Positions 27,192-62,945 of a stretch of DNA of 64,000 bases are shown in pieces (within the stretch, counting starts at the first letter, position 1; every line of letters starts with the position of its first letter). Position numbers and translations under genes: made by a program. The notes under the pieces are model-generated. The model searched no databases. It was not told where the DNA came from and saw nothing but the letters and a program-made list of their open reading frames with translations. Source of the stretch: Thermoanaerobacterium sp. RBIITD (GTDB lineage Bacteria > Bacillota > Thermoanaerobacteria > Thermoanaerobacterales > Thermoanaerobacteraceae); assembly GCF_900205865.1 (NCBI RefSeq), contig NZ_LT906662.1, forward strand, positions 1,623,411 through 1,687,410. Reading direction: 5' to 3'.

Positions 27192-28151
27192 TTACCCTAC
27201 AGCTATTCTTTCTTGTCTCCCGTTTTTGAATGCTATATCACCTTCAAGTTCTGTAAGTAAATGATACCTTGCTGTTTTAAATTCTTCTCCTATAAGTCCA
27301 AGCCTTAAAAGCAATGTTCTAAAGGTATATTTTTCGTTTGTGCTTTTGGTTTTTCTTGAACTTGCACTACTTTTGTCAATACTTGGTTGCTTATTGCAAG
27401 ACATAATTGTATGTAGGATTTAATCTTTCCTGCATGGGTTGTAATATTAAAACTTCTAAACTCAACTGTATTTCCATTAAAAAAACTGTGCAGGTTAAGT
27501 CCATAATATCTACTTCTATGGTAGTGTTTATTTCTATCTTCATCAAAGTAGCCTTCATACCAAAGGTCTGCAAACTTTTCTAAAGTATCTGGCTTTCTTT
27601 TATTAAGCTTATCTAAGAAAACTCTGTCTACTTTCTTGCAATATCTGCTTTCCCTTCTGATATCAATCTTTAATGCTTTGTAAATTAAATTCTCCTTGCT
27701 CGCTATAATGTTTACCAAGTTTCTAAGTGTCCTTGGTGTAAAAGGTGATTTATCAACATGAATATGAATACCACAATTAGAGTTTACAAAGGCTCATTCT
27801 TTTCTTAAAGCTCTTATAATCTCCTGTACTATTTCAATATCTTCGTATTTGCATATTGGAGAAACAATCTCTACTCTGTAAGTATTATCAGCTTCAACTA
27901 TTTCTTTGTGGATTAAGACTTGAATCATTAATTATCTTCCAAACCCTGCTTTGGAAATCCTCAACCCTCCAAGCATCATAAGCTTCACCAATATGTTTAA
28001 CATCTGTTCTAAAGTAACTTGCAATGGTCTTTGCTGCTCTTTCTCTTGTAATACCAGTTACCTCTATCTCTATACCTAAACACAAATTTTTCATATCCAA
28101 GAACTTCCTATAGGCTATATATGTGTTTTTTGTTTTATGAGGAAATTGCAC
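27192..28151 (-). pseudogene. frame-shifted amidoligase-like (Amidoligase_2 / GS-like) gene
   Basis: Three consecutive ORF pieces in different frames (27894..28151, about 27719..27893, and 27305..27718 plus 27192..27404). They carry the LGIEIEVTGI and SNCGIHIHVD motifs. Confidence 0.4.
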
Positions 28152-28238: not shown

Positions 28239-28706
28239 TTAATTAAGCTGTTTTTGGTAATGATTTAGTAGCATTAACGACAATATACCTGCAATAAGTA
28301 TAATACAGTTTAATAAAGCAAAGGTTTTAGCTTTTAATATTAATTGTTTAAAGTCTTCCTTAAGAACTTCCGACTCTGATATTAGGTTTAAAAATCTGCT
28401 AAAGGTTGATGTGGATGGTACAGAACCCAATACATTAAAAACACAGTTATATTTAAATACAGGGTCTGATTTTAATCTATCCACAAGCTTTACTATATTT
28501 TGAATTTTCTCAAGTTGCATAGCAATCAAGGCGTAAAGCAAAGGTAATGGGTCATATCCTTTAGGTCCTCTTTTATATTCAGGCCTTGATAGTGAAAGCA
28601 AGACATTTGAGAAATCAAACTGCGACAAAACCATTTCAAGTTTTGTTTCTGATTGAAATTTTATTAATTCGTTAAAGGAAAATAAGCATTCTTGTCGAAT
28701 ATACAT
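28239..28706 (-). pseudogene. truncated IS5/IS1182-like transposase N-terminal fragment
   Basis: KRGPKGYDPLPLLYALIAMQLEKI matches the conserved transposase N-terminal region. No DDE domain follows. Confidence 0.5.
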
Positions 28707-45892: not shown

Positions 45893-46157
45893 GATTATGT
45901 TACAAGTTTGTAATAAAAAATTAAGGAATTGTTAATAAATTTTATAAATTTTAATTTTATAATAAAAGGTAAGATATGGGAGGCAAGAATATAAAATGAA
46001 GCATAATATGCGGAAGTGATAAAAATTATTTTTATATTGCGGAATATTTTTAGAATAATTTAGCTTTTATATATATAGAAGGGGAAACAAAAGACGGAGG
46101 TGAAGAAAAAGATTATTCAATGTTCCCAAAAACATATGAGGGAGGGAGATATCTTTT
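45893..46157 (+). repeat. leader module copy A (part 1 joined to part 2; sigma cassette absent; uORF start degenerate)
   Basis: Shares TTATGTTACAAGTTTGTAATAAAAAATTAAGGAAT...GGGAGGCAAGAATATAAAATGAAGCATAATATGCGGAAGTGATAAAAAT...GGAATATTTTTAGAATAATTTAGCTTTTATATA with the other copies. Confidence 0.7.
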
Positions 46158-48707: not shown

Positions 48708-48733
48708 TCATGGCATTTGCCATGCTTTTTTTA
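48708..48733 (+). terminator. rho-independent terminator
   Basis: CATGGCATTTGCCATG followed by TTTTTTT; the same element occurs at 58458-58483. Confidence 0.6.
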
Positions 48734-48826
48734 TGTTACAAGATTGTAATAGAAAATTAAGGAATAATTAATAAAATTTATAATTTTTAATTTTATAATA
48801 GAGGTGAGGTATGGGAGGTTAAGAGT
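48731..48826 (+). repeat. leader module copy B, part 1
   Basis: TTATGTTACAAGATTGTAATAGAAAATTAAGGAATAATTAATAAAATTTATAATTTTTAATTTTATAATAGAGGTGAGGTATGGGAGGTTAAGAG, immediately before the ATG of 48827. Confidence 0.7.
48737..48750. promoter_or_regulatory. palindrome TTACAAGATTGTAA, putative operator
   Basis: Also present at 45899-45912 (as TTACAAGTTTGTAA), 52951-52964 and 58487-58500. Confidence 0.4.
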
Positions 48827-49228
48827 ATGGGAGAGAGCGATGTAGAATTTGCATTTATTAAGTTTATTGAAAAATCTATTAATTATGAAGCAGTAAAAGC
48901 CATAAAAAAATATAATGACATTAAAAAGAAAGAACTTTTAACATTAGAGTTACCAGATTACAATGGCAATATTGAAAATGATGGGAAAATTATTGACAGT
49001 ACGGTATACGATAATGTGTTAATTGAAAATGAAATAATAGATAGATTAATGATTTCAAAATGCAAGGAACTGTTGGAAGCGGAAGAATTTAATGTTGTAA
49101 TGCTAAATATAATGCAAGATATACCACAAAAAGAGGTAGCTAAAATGTTAAATAAATCACAATCATCCATAAGCAAGATTAAGAAAAAAGCCCTTAAGAA
49201 AATAAGAAAGTTTATGGAGGGTTCTTGA
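48827..49228 (+). CDS. ECF-type sigma-70 C-terminal fragment (regions 2.3/2.4 to 4.2)
   Basis: EFAFIKFIEKSINYEAVKAIKKYNDIKKKEL aligns to region 2.3-2.4 (compare SigW FSTWLYRIATNLTIDRIRKKK). The C-terminal VVMLNIMQDIPQKEVAKMLNKSQSSISKIKKKALKKIRK is a region 4.2 HTH. Confidence 0.6.
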   Translation: MGESDVEFAFIKFIEKSINYEAVKAIKKYNDIKKKELLTLELPDYNGNIENDGKIIDSTVYDNVLIENEIIDRLMISKCKELLEAEEFNVVMLNIMQDIPQKEVAKMLNKSQSSISKIKKKALKKIRKFMEGS

Positions 49229-51934: not shown

Positions 51935-52798
51935 TTGAAAAAGGTTCTTACTTTTGTTGTGATTGCTATATTGATATTAATATCAACTTTTCCGGCTTTT
52001 GCAGCTACTCCAATAAATACTCTGGTTCAACAACAATTAGATCTAGCTAAAGAAAAAGATCAGGTAGAACGTGCAATTAGCGATAGCCAGTCAAATCCTA
52101 AAAAATTTTTATTCGATAACAAACATGAGCTGGGACGTAAAGAGTTAATGGATGTAAGTAATCCTGACGATTTAATATACGGGAAAGCATATAAAGTGTA
52201 TATTGCTAATAAAGAAGTTATTCAAGATCTAATAGAAGGGAAAAATATTTCTAATGTTCTGTTAAATGCACCTTATGAGTGGGAAGTGCCTGTAAAATTT
52301 AATAATAAAAGTGTAGCGTCAATTACCGTATCTTTTTTGGACAATAGATGGAATGTTGGTGAAATTGGCGGCTATCTTTCGCCTAATTCTATTGATTTTG
52401 TAAGCAATCCTGATGATATAACTTCATATCTTGATAACAATAATTTAAAAGAAGCAAAAACATTTATTCATTTCAGAATACCTTCGTTGCATTCCGATTT
52501 TCTTTATATTGAAGCAAATAGTGGAGAATATTTTATCCCTGTTATTCACGGCGAAGGTAAAAGTGAGCTTTATGGTCTTAAAGACAAAAAAATATATACA
52601 AAAGACGAGATAATTTCCGCTGTTGGTCATACTCTTAAAGCTGGTTTGAAAGATACGGGAATGACAACAGGCCGCCCGTCGGTTAATGGGAAATATCTTG
52701 GCAATCAAGTATACTATTTAATTGTATTGACAATTTTTATTGCCTTTATAACAATTTTTCACTTTATTAGATTGAAACGAAAATACAGTTATAAGTAA
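51935..52798 (+). CDS. exported protein with C-terminal membrane anchor (hypothetical)
   Basis: Signal peptide (VIAILILISTFPAFAATP) and a C-terminal TM helix followed by a basic tail (LKRKYSYK). It has a TTG start with an RBS (GAGGAGGTG). Confidence 0.5.
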   Translation: MKKVLTFVVIAILILISTFPAFAATPINTLVQQQLDLAKEKDQVERAISDSQSNPKKFLFDNKHELGRKELMDVSNPDDLIYGKAYKVYIANKEVIQDLIEGKNISNVLLNAPYEWEVPVKFNNKSVASITVSFLDNRWNVGEIGGYLSPNSIDFVSNPDDITSYLDNNNLKEAKTFIHFRIPSLHSDFLYIEANSGEYFIPVIHGEGKSELYGLKDKKIYTKDEIISAVGHTLKAGLKDTGMTTGRPSVNGKYLGNQVYYLIVLTIFIAFITIFHFIRLKRKYSYK

Positions 52799-52944
52799 AT
52801 AAGCGAATCTAAGGTGGAATATTAAAATTCTATGTTAGACACCCATCAAAAATAGTTGGTGTCTTTTATTTTTTATTTTGCATAGGCAATCAGGATGTAA
52901 GTGTTTATCTGATAAGTTAAGGGACCAATAAAATTTTTCTGCCA

Positions 52945-53000
52945 ATTATGTTACAAGATTGTAATAAAAAATTAAGGAATAATTAATAAAATTTATGATT
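52945..53000 (+). repeat. leader module copy C, part 1, interrupted by an IS
   Basis: ATTATGTTACAAGATTGTAATAAAAAATTAAGGAATAATTAATAAAATTTATGATT, then the IS begins. Confidence 0.65.
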
Positions 53001-54782
53001 TGATTCAAGTGTCATAAGAAGCATTTTTTTAAGCTGCTAATGATAACTTTGCTTGATTTTTACCTGATTTTGTAAGAATAAATTTGATTTTGATATTTTT
53101 ATACAAAGTTGCAGCCATCTCCGCTGCCATTTTCAGTATTTTTTTTGCATTTATGGCTCCTATTTTGAATGAAAACCAGATTTTTGAGCGCACTAATCCC
53201 CTTACAGGTATCACATCTACATAATATTTGCGCCTTAGTATTGATGGAATACCCTCCACTCCATTTCTTATCTTTTGAAGTACACTGTATTCTTCTGTTG
53301 ACATCTTTTTCAAATAGCTTGCTCTTTGTATTGTTTTTGCTGTTATCAGTACATATGCCGATTTCTTTTGTAGCTTCGCTCCACATTTTTCTCTTAGTGG
53401 ACAATGTTCACATGTTTTTTTATTGAAGGATGCTCTATATAATCCTGTTTTTTCATAGTATCTTGTTTTGTATGGTTTTTCTCCTCTTGGGCATTTGATT
53501 ATTTCATGGGTCGTTTCATCTAATTCAAATTCGCTTTGTATTTCATCTGGCAATTTCCCTATAAGAGCTGTTGTTATTAGTTCGATATTGTTTTTATCTG
53601 CAAGTTCTATGTTTTCAATGCTGCTGTAAGCTCCATCTGCTATTATTGTTATTTCTTTTTCTTGTTTCCCTAGCTTTTCTATTGTTTCTTTGCAAAAGCT
53701 GCTATCGCTGTGTGTGTTTACATCATAGTCATAGCTGGTTATTATGGAGCCTTTTTCGTCTATTGTTTCTACTATGTTAGCTACATAGCCTTTATGGTCT
53801 TTTCCTGCTTTTTTGCGATATGTTGCATCTGGGTCGCTTGGGTTTTGAAGACTATCAGGGCTTATTTTTTCTTTTTCTACTGGTACTATCTTGCCTTCTT
53901 CTGTTATTTCTGTTTGTTCTTTTAGTACACGCTGTAATAGCTGATATTCTGGTAATTCAGCGTATGCTTCTCCTAATTCTTTTATTAGTGTATAGGCATC
54001 TTCAATTATTTCTTGAAGTCTTTTTGTTATTTCTTCGTTTTTTCTATGATAGATTGTTTTGTTTCTGTCGTCTTCATCTAGGTAGTGTTCCATGTTTTTG
54101 AGGTGTTGATATTCTCCTGTTTTGTATACTGCCTTGACCATATTTGCTACGCATGTGTATAGTATTTCTAATCTGGACATTTTTTTGCAACTGGATGATA
54201 CCATAATGCTGTCCATTCTTTTTACTGATGGATTTATATTAAAGTATTTTACAAATACGTTTGCCATGGCTTCCATTTCTTCATGAAGAAGGTCTCTTCC
54301 TGTTTCTAGATTGTAAAGATATAGCCTTTCACGAAAACGGCTAAAAGTCCTATCACTGAAAGGTTGACTTTTGAAGCTTGTAGTGTGAAGGGCGTATTGG
54401 AAACGGACATCACATAGGATGCTTGCTAATAGTTCGTCATCTGTGAGATTAAACATTTCTTTTAGTATTAGGGCTCCAATTATTGCGTTTACAGGACTGT
54501 TTGGACGAGAAGCGGGATTGTCACTGTACAATACGGAAAAGCGTTTCTCATTGATTGCTGGAAATATGATTTCAGCAAAGCCTTTTGCCCATGAATTTAA
54601 AACAAACGTTTTTGTTCTTTCATCCAAGTTTAAGAATCTATCATCAATTGTGATTTGTTGATATTCGTTTGGTTTGAATGCCATGGCTATGTATCGCTCC
54701 TTCTATTTCCTTTTGTTTGTATTTCTATTTTACCATATTTTTAGTTTATCATGAAGGAAAAATACTTTTGACACCTTAATCA
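53001..54782 (-). mobile_element. IS1182-family (IS5/IS1182) insertion sequence, about 1.78 kb, with imperfect terminal inverted repeats of about 25 bp and a TGATT direct-repeat flank
   Basis: Left end TGATTCAAGTGTCATAAGAAGCATTTTT and the reverse complement of the right end, TGATTAAGGTGTCAAAAGTATTTTT. TGATT is present at 52996-53000 and at 54783-54787. Confidence 0.7.
53029..54684 (-). CDS. IS1182-family transposase
   Basis: 551 aa with the N-terminal conserved region NPASRPNSPVNAIIGALILKEMFNLTDDEL. A DDE region and a C-terminal Cys-rich segment (CPRGEK...CEHCPLREKC) follow. Confidence 0.85.
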   Translation of the reverse strand: MAFKPNEYQQITIDDRFLNLDERTKTFVLNSWAKGFAEIIFPAINEKRFSVLYSDNPASRPNSPVNAIIGALILKEMFNLTDDELLASILCDVRFQYALHTTSFKSQPFSDRTFSRFRERLYLYNLETGRDLLHEEMEAMANVFVKYFNINPSVKRMDSIMVSSSCKKMSRLEILYTCVANMVKAVYKTGEYQHLKNMEHYLDEDDRNKTIYHRKNEEITKRLQEIIEDAYTLIKELGEAYAELPEYQLLQRVLKEQTEITEEGKIVPVEKEKISPDSLQNPSDPDATYRKKAGKDHKGYVANIVETIDEKGSIITSYDYDVNTHSDSSFCKETIEKLGKQEKEITIIADGAYSSIENIELADKNNIELITTALIGKLPDEIQSEFELDETTHEIIKCPRGEKPYKTRYYEKTGLYRASFNKKTCEHCPLREKCGAKLQKKSAYVLITAKTIQRASYLKKMSTEEYSVLQKIRNGVEGIPSILRRKYYVDVIPVRGLVRSKIWFSFKIGAINAKKILKMAAEMAATLYKNIKIKFILTKSGKNQAKLSLAA

Positions 54783-54995
54783 TGATTTTTAATTTTATAA
54801 TATTAGGTGAGGCAGGTATGTATAAAGTATAAAATGAAGCATAACATTCGTAAATGATAAAAATAATTTTTATGATGTGGAATATTTTTAGAAAAAATTA
54901 GCTTTTATATAAGTAGAAGGGGAAATACGGAAAATGGAGGTGAGGAAAGAGATTATGAAATATTCCCCTAAAATATGAGAGAGGGAAATAAGATT
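54783..54995 (+). repeat. leader module copy C, part 2 (resumes after the IS)
   Basis: ATGATTTTTAATTTTATAATATTAGGTGAGGCAGGTATGTATAAAGTATAAAATGAAGCATAACATTCGTAAATGATAAAAAT... The uORF MEVRKEIMKYSPKI lies at 54934..54978. Confidence 0.65.
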
Positions 54996-56096
54996 ATGAA
55001 AAAGATTTTCTCAATTTTTATTTTAATGATACTCTTTATATGTGGGGCAGTTATTAATGTAAATGCATACACAAATAACGAAAATATGAACAGTAAAGAA
55101 ATCACTAATATAATTACAGAAGCATATCAATATAGGACAAAATCAATAGTTGATCCGTCTTATATAGATAAATTGGAGTTGTTTTATGCAAAATATACAA
55201 AAATTTATAATTTCGAAAAGAATAGATATAAAAATTATATTGAGATGGCAGATAGACTGAATATAAAAATATTAAACATTAAATCCAATGTAGAAATTAG
55301 TAATATTAAGTTAAAAAACAATGATGAATGTCAAGTTGATTTAAAAGAGATTATAAGTTTTGACTGGATAAATTCAAATGATGATCCAATTAATTCTAAG
55401 ACTAACAAATCTGATATGGGTATTGATCATAAAGTTACATTAATTAAGAAAGATAATGAATGGAAAATACAAAAAGATGAATATACTGAAGGATATTTAA
55501 CAAATGTTACTTCTCCGGATTTTGATGTTTCACAATTAAAATCACTGAGTGTACCTGAAATAACGCATGATAATGTAGTTCCATATTCACCACCAGGATC
55601 AACTCCTTATAATAGAAATGCAGCTGCTAACTATGCAGAAAATTATTGTTTGAAATATAATCCTAGTTATAAAAGCTATGATTCAGTTGGTGGTGACTGT
55701 GCAAATTTTGTTTCTCAGTGCTTATATGCTGGTGGGGCCTATTATATTGGATTTGGGATTAATAGTAGTACAAACTGGTGGTATGATAATAAAAATACTT
55801 CTTTAACTACAGATGATGTTGCATCTACTACATGGACATATTGTCCTTCTCAAAGACCTTTTATACTATCAGGGTGGGGTAGTGAAACAACTTCATCAAG
55901 TTTATCAAGAGGAGACATTATATATTATGATTGGGCTGGAGATGGTATATGGGATCACGTTGCTATAGTAACAGGCTTTGATAGTTCTGGCGCTCCCCTT
56001 GTTAGCTGTCATACTACCGATTATCACAATATAAAATGGAATTATGGTGGAAGTTCTTGCAAATATAGTTGCATACACATTAATAATTATATTTAA
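54996..56096 (+). CDS. exported Amidase_6-like putative cell-wall hydrolase
   Basis: Signal peptide (IFILMILFICGAVINVNA). The C-terminal domain has Cys (GGDCANFVSQCLYAGG) and His (GIWDHVAIVTGFD) residues typical of the putative-amidase (PF12671-like) family. Confidence 0.55.
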   Translation: MKKIFSIFILMILFICGAVINVNAYTNNENMNSKEITNIITEAYQYRTKSIVDPSYIDKLELFYAKYTKIYNFEKNRYKNYIEMADRLNIKILNIKSNVEISNIKLKNNDECQVDLKEIISFDWINSNDDPINSKTNKSDMGIDHKVTLIKKDNEWKIQKDEYTEGYLTNVTSPDFDVSQLKSLSVPEITHDNVVPYSPPGSTPYNRNAAANYAENYCLKYNPSYKSYDSVGGDCANFVSQCLYAGGAYYIGFGINSSTNWWYDNKNTSLTTDDVASTTWTYCPSQRPFILSGWGSETTSSSLSRGDIIYYDWAGDGIWDHVAIVTGFDSSGAPLVSCHTTDYHNIKWNYGGSSCKYSCIHINNYI

Positions 56097-58483: not shown

Positions 58484-58728
58484 ATGTTACAAGATTGTAA
58501 TAGAAAATTAAGGAATAATTAATAAAATTTATAATTTTTAATTTTATAATAGAGGTGAGGTATGGGAGGTTAAGAGCATAATATGCAAAATGATAAAAAT
58601 AATTTTTATGATGTGGAATATTTTTAGAATAATTTAGCTTTTATATAAGTAGAAGGGGCAATACAGAAGATGGAGGTGAAAAAAGATTATGAAATATTCC
58701 CCAAAAATATTAAGGAGGGAGATCTTTT
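58484..58728 (+). repeat. leader module copy D (part 1 joined to part 2, no sigma cassette)
   Basis: Part 1 is identical to copy B up to GGGAGGTTAAGAG and is then joined directly to CATAATATGCAAAATGATAAAAAT... The uORF MEVKKDYEIFPKNIKEGDLL lies at 58670..58732 and overlaps the ATG of 58729. Confidence 0.7.
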
Positions 58729-61910: not shown

Positions 61911-62945
61911 ATGGTGAGAGTCGGCATACTTGGGGCAACCGGCTATACTGGTGCAGAGCTTATAAGGATCTTATCTAATCATGAAGATGTTCAGATAAAA
62001 TATTTATCATCTCAAAATTTTAATGGTAAAAAGATTGAAGATGTATATCCTTCATTAAAAGGGTTTTGCAGCGAGAAGCTTCAGGAATATGACACTGATA
62101 AAATTATTGAGAATTGTGATGTGGTATTTACAGCACTTCCATCGGGGTATGCAGTAAATATAGCTGAAAAATTATGCAAAAATGGAGTAAAGCTTATTGA
62201 CCTCGGCGCAGATTTTAGGTTTGATAATTTTGAAACATACAGAGATTGGTATGGAAGCGATAAAAATGGATATGGCGATATTAAAAGGGCGTATGGGCTT
62301 CCGGAACTTCATAGACAAGAGATTAAGGATGCTTTAGCGGTAGGAAATCCCGGATGTTATCCTACTTCTGCAATACTTGGTCTGTCACCTGCTTTAAAAA
62401 GCAGAATAATAGAAAATTTTATCATAATCGATTCTAAATCTGGAGTGTCCGGTGCCGGCCACAGCCCAAAACAGGGCAATATGTATGCAGAATGCAATGA
62501 CAATATAAAGCCTTACAATGTTGCTAAGCACAGACACATACCCGAGATAGAGCAAGAGCTTTCACATGTGAATCGCAAAGAGACAAAAGTTGTTTTCACA
62601 CCTCATTTAACGCCAATGACTAGAGGAATATTAAGCACCATGTACTGCAGGTTAATAAAAGAAATTTCAGCAGAAGATATATATGAGATATATAATGAAT
62701 TCTACAAAGATGAGTATTTTGTAAAAATATTAGATATCGGTGAATATCCATCAACAAAAAATGTATACGGCTCAAATTTTTGCCACATAGGATTTGAAAT
62801 TGATAAACATTCAAAAACACTGATAATCATGTCAGCAATAGACAATTTAGTAAAAGGTGCATCAGGGCAAGCTGTACAAAATATGAATATAATGTTTGGA
62901 ATTGAAGAGACAAGGGGACTTAATATGATACCAATTTTTCCTTAG
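61911..62945 (+). CDS. argC: N-acetyl-gamma-glutamyl-phosphate reductase
   Basis: N-terminus [14 protein letters not shown] and the active-site region GNPGCYPTS. Confidence 0.9.

Follow-up and report, generated by a model that had tools for sequence, protein, structure and literature searches.

Evidence for transposition of a 1,780-bp IS1182-like element of Thermoanaerobacterium sp. RBIITD into a promoter-like block that precedes an Amidase_6 gene

Genomic Context and Main Features

A stretch of 64,000 nucleotides from the genome of Thermoanaerobacterium sp. RBIITD (contig NZ_LT906662.1 of assembly GCF_900205865.1, positions 1,623,411 to 1,687,410 of the forward strand) was analyzed in this study; the whole stretch is referred to below as the window, and all coordinates are given in its numbering. 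The window carries four copies of a short promoter-like block, one of which (copy C) is split by an insertion sequence (IS) with a single transposase gene on the minus strand, and an Amidase_6/CHAP-like gene on the plus strand follows the second part of the split copy (Table 1). We consider it very probable that this IS1182-like element of 1,780 bp, from a clade that is multi-copy among Thermoanaerobacterium genomes, transposed into copy C of the 67-bp block upstream of the Amidase_6 gene. The element itself is a real, intact, and ordinary IS, which is already present in public annotation as an unnamed "transposase."

Table 1. Coordinates of the element, its target, and the adjacent gene within the window.
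Feature	Position	Strand	Evidence or remarks
Insertion sequence proper	53002..54781	-	Homology to 26 sibling copies begins and ends here; siblings equal in length
Terminal inverted repeat at the transposase 3' end, GATTCAAGTGTCATAAG	53002..53018	+	Repeat-pair search, motif scan, relatives
Terminal inverted repeat at the transposase 5' end, GATTAAGGTGTCAAAAG on the minus strand	54765..54781	-	Kept in relatives from six other genera
Transposase gene, 551 amino acids, intact	53029..54684	-	Pfam DUF772, DDE_Tnp_1_6, and DDE_Tnp_1; best NCBIfam match IS1182
Left target-site duplication, ATGATTT	52995..53001	.	TGATT at 52996-53000 is its core
Right target-site duplication, ATGATTT	54782..54788	.	Sequence and repeats of the sibling copies
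Upstream 54 bp of module copy C	52948..53001	+	Palindrome TTACAAGATTGTAA at 52951-52964; first -10-like box TATGAT at 52994-52999
Downstream 13 bp of module copy C, TTAATTTTATAAT	54789..54801	+	Ends in the second -10-like box, TATAAT, at 54796-54801
Outward TTGACA within the inverted repeat	54768..54773	+	Followed after 16 nt by TAATTT (54790-54795) and after 22 nt by TATAAT; read from the sequence
Amidase_6/CHAP-like gene	54996..56096	+	Pfam PF12671, E = 3.6e-32; alternative ATG at 54975

Structure of the Element and Its Transposase

The transposase is encoded by one uninterrupted open reading frame (ORF), and its 551 amino acids are the modal length among its homologues. Three Pfam domains were identified above their gathering scores, including PF05598 in the N-terminal part (E = 1e-10), PF13751 in the C-terminal part (E = 1.9e-13), and PF01609 (E = 1.1e-6). 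Every alignment column that is invariant across 11 homologues, down to 58% identity, is kept in the window protein, and the invariant residues include those of SDPDAT (D284 and D286), ADGAY (D350), and VEG (E477), as well as R484 at position E+7. This arrangement corresponds to the DDE-K/R pattern expected for the IS4/IS5/IS1182 group, and the conservation suggests which of these residues may be catalytic. On the minus strand ahead of the start codon, TTCATG and TAAAAT, separated by a 17-nt spacer and with a TG preceding the second hexamer (54755-54727, read by eye), form a plausible candidate for the transposase promoter.

The element is bounded by imperfect inverted repeats. The sequence TGATTCAAGTGTCATAAG at 53001-53018 has an imperfect reverse complement at 54765-54782 (15 of 18 positions match), and 14 of 17 positions match once the tip base is assigned to the target, as argued below. 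A degenerate-pattern scan of the window found the end motif TGATTMARGTGTCAWAAG only at these two places, 53001-53018 and 54765-54782, where 0.07 matches would be expected by chance. The first-pass annotation of this DNA had correctly described the repeats as imperfect, and its arm length of about 25 bp was generous: past 18 bp the match drops to 18 of 25 (hand count of the printed ends), and the real arm is 17 bp. Its description of an intact IS with one 551-amino-acid transposase gene on the minus strand holds, given a full-length ORF (54684-53029), both ends, and two identical 7-bp copies of ATGATTT.

The window transposase is 100% identical to WP_096231385.1, "transposase [Thermoanaerobacterium sp. 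RBIITD]," a record that holds two GenBank accessions (SNX54000.1 and SNX54733.1). Because the identical protein is annotated twice, the RBIITD genome contains at least two copies of the element with the same protein, which fits recent activity. The intact ORF, the identical repeat copies, a G shared by both of them (see below), and the double annotation together make the insertion look recent and the element potentially active, a mobility judged here from sequence features.

Sibling Copies and the Target-Site Duplication

Relatives of the element were sought by a scan of one genome per species and then by exact-protein look-ups. The closest copies in the scan were found in Thermoanaerobacterium saccharolyticum NTOU1, T. 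butyriciformans, and T. thermosulfurigenes (90-97% protein identity), and further relatives belong to Petrocella, Lacrimispora, Mobilitalea, Pelotomaculum, Anaerocolumna, Fusibacter, and Thermincola (62-81%). Exact-protein look-ups with three members of a 96% cluster added 24 more sites in genomes of T. thermosaccharolyticum, a single genome of which has at least 10 element sites. The sibling set used below comprises 27 full-length copies of equal length, including the window copy; a 1,796-bp variant site from an 89% cluster was excluded from it. Copies in T. thermosaccharolyticum (CP116033, CP117247, and JBKEEU01), T. saccharolyticum NTOU1, T. butyriciformans, and T. xylanolyticum (Thexy_0750) are like the window copy in length, terminal repeats, and the 551-amino-acid transposase, with 94.6-96.4% nucleotide identity, and they likewise have 6-8 bp duplications at AT-rich sites. 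The window copy represents a minor sequence variant, nearest to a copy of T. saccharolyticum NTOU1 (L003, 96.4%), and its transposase-distal repeat reads CACTTGAATC in place of CACTCAAATC.

In BLASTN comparisons of the element, as first drawn, with these loci, positions 1 to 1782 align and nothing beyond them does, the flanks diverging directly outside. The ends are kept in the 26 full siblings, in several partial copies, and in the elements of Petrocella, Mobilitalea, Pelotomaculum, Anaerocolumna, Fusibacter, and Thermincola. Related elements thus exist in numbers, with 26 further full-length copies compared here, and the terminal repeats are common to every other copy, including the relatives of 62-81% identity in other genera. 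Both refutation tests proposed with the first-pass annotation, a lack of related elements and terminal repeats missing from other copies, therefore turned out in support of it.

The sibling set defines the exact ends of the element and the length of the duplication. The first-pass annotation had proposed a 1,782-bp element flanked by a 5-bp duplication, TGATT, which is indeed present at 52996-53000 and again at 54783-54787, and its stated positions and sequences all proved accurate as drawn. With the ends drawn in this way, a direct repeat abuts the element in 24 of the 27 copies (23 of the 26 siblings), measuring 4 bp in 15 copies, 5 bp in eight, and 6 bp in one; when the left flank of one copy is paired with the right flank of another, a repeat of at least 4 bp occurs in 5% of 702 mismatched pairs. 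An A precedes the left repeat in all 24 copies and a T follows the right repeat in 23 of them, and when the outermost T...A of the element is counted in, the repeat takes the form A-N(4-6)-T on both sides, the tip bases being included in 24 of 24. Such a form would result either from a target preference or from tip bases that are part of the target, and three independent copies decide between the two. L038 has A in place of T as the "first base" and its repeat reads AATTTAA, L060 has tips T...T and the repeat TTTAAAT, and L097 has tips C...A and the repeat CTATATAA. Since the deviant tip base is repeated on the opposite side in each case, the outermost bases are part of the target, which leaves GATT...AATC, with a length of 1,780 bp, as the element proper.

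Each end was accordingly shifted by one base, and the combination of a 5-bp duplication with a 1,782-bp element was dropped in favor of 7 bp and 1,780 bp because the tip bases are repeated across copies. The flanking TGATT thus belongs to a true duplication, of which it is the core. Corrected in this way, the duplication is 6 bp long in 15 copies, 7 bp in eight, and 8 bp in one. The insertion sites average 20% GC over 60 nt versus 33% in the surrounding kilobases. Distant relatives were set aside as a guide to the duplication because most copies in other genera have no repeat. What this analysis adds is the shift of both ends by one base and the A-N-T rule for duplications of 6-8 bp, and the ends, the duplication length, and the A-N(4-6)-T preference are now fixed for a high-copy element that databases label only as "transposase."

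Several further loci were recorded during these comparisons. In T. thermosaccharolyticum JAQQRJ010000001.1 (L039, 369709-373364), two tandem copies lie approximately 40 bp apart, and the upstream one shares the CTTGAATC variant of the end with the window copy. In T. thermosaccharolyticum JBKEEU010000001.1 (L033, 851940-855595), a sibling copy is located between ribBA (DHBP_synthase/GTP_cyclohydro2) and ribH (DMRL_synthase), with its TTGACA-bearing end facing ribH, and this locus is a possible natural test of outward transcription. The motif GATTAGGGTGTCAAAAGT was also identified in human-gut and other metagenome contigs with a recurrent sequence on its left, for example AGTTTCCTATAAG/A (L071, L082, L090, and L091) or TTTTGCCTATAAA (L074 and L164), which suggests that these loci represent a related type of element whose terminal repeat is longer. 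The base before GATT in 120 metagenome matches was dropped as evidence on the element end, as many of these matches are another element type in which the repeat extends to the left.

The Interrupted Promoter-Like Block

A 33-nt module core is present four times in the window, at 45897 (copy A), 48733 (B), 52948 (C), and 58484 (D), and the sequence across the insertion point continues without a break at 45934, 48770, and 58521. When the element and one repeat are deleted from copy C, it aligns without gaps to copies A, B, and D, which restores a 67-bp, almost invariant promoter-like block, ATGTTACAAG...TTTTATAAT, found intact three more times in the window. The alignment of copy C with copies A and D extends through a leader of approximately 190 nt. 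The blocks are located at 45897-45963, 48733-48799, 52948-53001 plus 54789-54801, and 58484-58550, with the palindrome TTACAAGATTGTAA and two TATAAT boxes 9 nt apart.

The site sequence that the first-pass annotation had given for the uninterrupted copies, AAAATTTATAATTTTTAATTTT, is correct for copies B and D, whereas copy A reads AAATTTTATAAATTTTAATTTT. In B and D the first -10-like box is TATAAT, and the sole difference at the junction is a G in copy C (TATGATT) versus an A in B and D (TATAATT). Because both copies of the repeat carry the G, it is older than the insertion and was doubled together with the target. An empty site is predicted to read AAAATTTATGATTTTTAATTTT, possibly with A for G. 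Insertion at this site of the module is particular to the RBIITD genome. The argC gene of the window (61911-62945) is 100% identical to that of Thermoanaerobacterium sp. RBIITD, and the next best matches, from other Thermoanaerobacterium species, have approximately 81% identity.

Genes behind the block encode secreted or cell-wall proteins, namely a DUF4829 protein (46158), the Amidase_6 protein (54996), and a DUF4829 plus SpoIID protein (58729), and the four-copy block looks like a small regulon. Copy B lies approximately 30 nt upstream of a gene for a 133-amino-acid protein (48827-49228, plus strand) with a sigma-70 region 4 domain and a near-threshold match to the extracytoplasmic function-type sigma factor model TIGR02937 (42.3 bits versus a cut-off of 42.9), followed by Peptidase_C39_2-like genes. 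This sigma-70-like protein is a candidate for an autoregulated factor acting on the four-copy block. A search of the whole window with Rfam identified no family at the gathering threshold for the leader of copies A, C, and D, and nothing at E up to 1 over 54783-55000; the thiamine pyrophosphate riboswitch RF00059 (36728-36826, plus strand, 76.1 bits) is the sole Rfam family at gathering score in the window.

Family Placement

The best NCBIfam match of the transposase is the IS1182 model NF033551, which covers model positions 40-487 of 488 with 133.7 bits, below its curated cut-off of 270, and which is ahead of any IS5 model by approximately 90 bits. The IS5 models NF033578 (44 bits), NF033581 (34.9), and NF033579 (19.8) also remain below their cut-offs of 275, 140, and 140, respectively. 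A tblastn search against plasmids returned 61 records; among the matches listed, most of those at 21-26% identity over 75-90% of the length are named "IS1182 family transposase," and the closest ones listed are haloarchaeal, with 27-31% identity, and annotated only "transposase." The IS1182 assignment of the first-pass annotation is thus retained as the best family match and qualified in degree: because its score falls below the cut-off and its identity to PGAP-labelled IS1182 transposases is only 21-26%, the element is best described, from its protein sequence, as belonging to a divergent IS1182-like clade.

The element resembles the IS1182 family in having one long DDE transposase with DUF772 at the N-terminus and DDE_Tnp_1_6 at the C-terminus, a length of approximately 1.8 kb, and inverted repeats. 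Members of this family, which include IS1182 and IS1272 of staphylococci, range from 1.3 to 1.95 kb in ISfinder. Similarities to the IS5 family comprise the N-terminal DUF772 domain, the DDE_Tnp_1 fold, and the weak IS5 model matches, and the element is longer than typical IS5 members.

IS1182-type elements are heterogeneous at the target site, with or without duplication (PMC12056078; PMC5678879), and some family members target palindromes or stem-loops (PMC5678879), so that a clade producing 6-8 bp duplications lies within this range. IS1272 replaces stem-loop targets without duplication (PMC5678879), unlike the window clade with its 6-8 bp duplications. In Thermoanaerobacter kivui, an IS1182-like element drives the TnCO-1 megatransposon and is described as relying on imperfect left and right terminal repeats (PMC12056078). 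Likened by description only, that element and the one in the window are both of the IS1182 type and come from thermophiles of the same order; unlike TnCO-1, the window copy has no associated passenger DNA or large rearrangement. We found no literature specific to the element in Thermoanaerobacterium. Strains of this genus are engineered for biofuel production, where active ISs cause instability.

Integration Model and Probable Effect on the Amidase_6 Gene

The features described above are consistent with a simple course of integration, in which a single DDE transposase would recognize the 17-bp terminal inverted repeats and join the element ends to cuts staggered by 6-8 bp, A-N(4-6)-T being the preferred target within very AT-rich DNA. 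Once the staggered cuts were repaired, the 7-bp duplication ATGATTT would have been left, and the palindrome and the first -10-like box would have been moved 1,787 bp off, with the result that native control of the amidase gene was most likely lost or weakened.

The gene upstream of copy C ends at 52798, and a hairpin and T-run come next at approximately 52838-52876 (read from the sequence); the conserved signals upstream of the Amidase_6/CHAP-like gene are those of copy C only. The insertion overlaps the end of TATGAT, and the other end of the element lies 14 nt before the second TATAAT. In total, 54 bp of the block are displaced by 1,787 bp, in agreement with the earlier proposal that the insertion separates the promoter part from the Amidase_6 gene, and the last 13 bp remain attached. 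Because the transposase gene diverges from the amidase gene, read-through from the transposase is excluded, and a consensus promoter scan identified no canonical sigma-70 hybrid promoter at the junction. For these two reasons, uncoupling or silencing is likelier than new activation, and the Amidase_6 gene is most likely uncoupled from its native block, whose control may at best have been replaced by a weak hybrid promoter using the TTGACA at the element end.

The first-pass annotation had suggested that expression of the gene may have been rewired. Outward -35 boxes carried by ISs are a well-known route to the activation of adjacent genes, and rewiring in this sense would mean that the outward TTGACA and a -10-like hexamer of the flank form a hybrid promoter which renders the amidase gene constitutive and places it outside its former regulon. 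The perfect TTGACA 8 nt from the element tip in every copy is compatible with this proposal, as is TAATTT, with its T1, A2, and T6 positions, 16 nt downstream; however, this second hexamer matches at only three of six positions, the consensus scan is silent at the site, and the good TATAAT at 22 nt is too far away. The orientation of the siblings relative to neighboring genes, as counted from gene tables, is 15 versus 8, a bias that is not significant. We regard such rewiring as unlikely.

The insertion could also have been neutral, if the functional promoter consisted of the second TATAAT (54796-54801) and downstream sequence, which are still attached. Conservation across the four module copies stops just after this second TATAAT, as for a -10 box, and the intact copies too are without a good -35 hexamer 16-18 nt upstream. 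What makes neutrality improbable is that the upstream 54 bp are almost invariant in all four copies, which argues that this stretch is needed, and that the element takes the place of all sequence beyond 8 nt upstream of the second TATAAT. A more far-reaching view would combine two propositions, namely that the insertion was adaptive, with the amidase gene either leaving a small regulon under the four-copy block and the adjacent small sigma-70-like protein or gaining an IS-borne promoter, and, separately, that the clade is an uncharacterized IS1182-like subgroup with a flexible, A/T-anchored stagger of 6-8 bp; taken jointly, they appear distinctly unlikely.

A chance origin of the flanking repeat in AT-rich DNA, with the element arriving otherwise, for example by recombination between copies, is effectively refuted: the frequency of chance repeats among mismatched sibling flanks and the three siblings with no repeat would favor it, but the window repeat is 7 bp long, both of its copies share the G that is missing from the three paralogous modules, deletion of one copy restores the module exactly, and the same 6-8 bp rule applies to 24 of the 27 copies.

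Some observations weigh against transposition of an IS1182-like element into copy C. Its score with the IS1182 model falls short of the curated cut-off, and the roles of D, D, and E as putative catalytic residues are read from conservation. Three near-identical siblings and most distant relatives have no repeat, which could reflect later recombination between copies, or decay. No orthologous empty site was found in another strain: exact-protein look-ups for the transposase, the amidase gene, the upstream gene, and argC yielded nothing or short Logan contigs (1-2.4 kb) that end before the junction, and a metagenome scan for the empty site of copy C found none; near-identical versions of neighboring genes are present in the samples SRR31131349, SRR25213501, and SRR7106377. 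The pre-insertion sequence is thus taken from the paralogous copies, in which an A stands at the position of the copy C G. With transposition into copy C as the preferred reading, the amidase gene behind this copy is probably regulated unlike the genes behind copies A, B, and D, which is relevant to studies of the promoter block.

A Second Transposase Fragment in the Window

The ORF at 28239-28706 on the minus strand encodes a 155-amino-acid, N-terminal transposase piece from which the whole DDE part is missing. It matches Pfam DUF772 (E = 2.8e-12), and its best NCBIfam match is IS1182 (E = 5e-9). BLASTP detected no similarity between this fragment and the 551-amino-acid transposase, and its truncation likewise accords with the earlier description of a decayed and different transposase. 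Directly downstream of it lies a broken Amidoligase_2 (PF12224) gene (27305-28151, minus strand), which is split into three ORFs (28151-27894, 27928-27794, and 27718-27305). The presence of this broken gene beside the truncated transposase fragment marks a decayed region.

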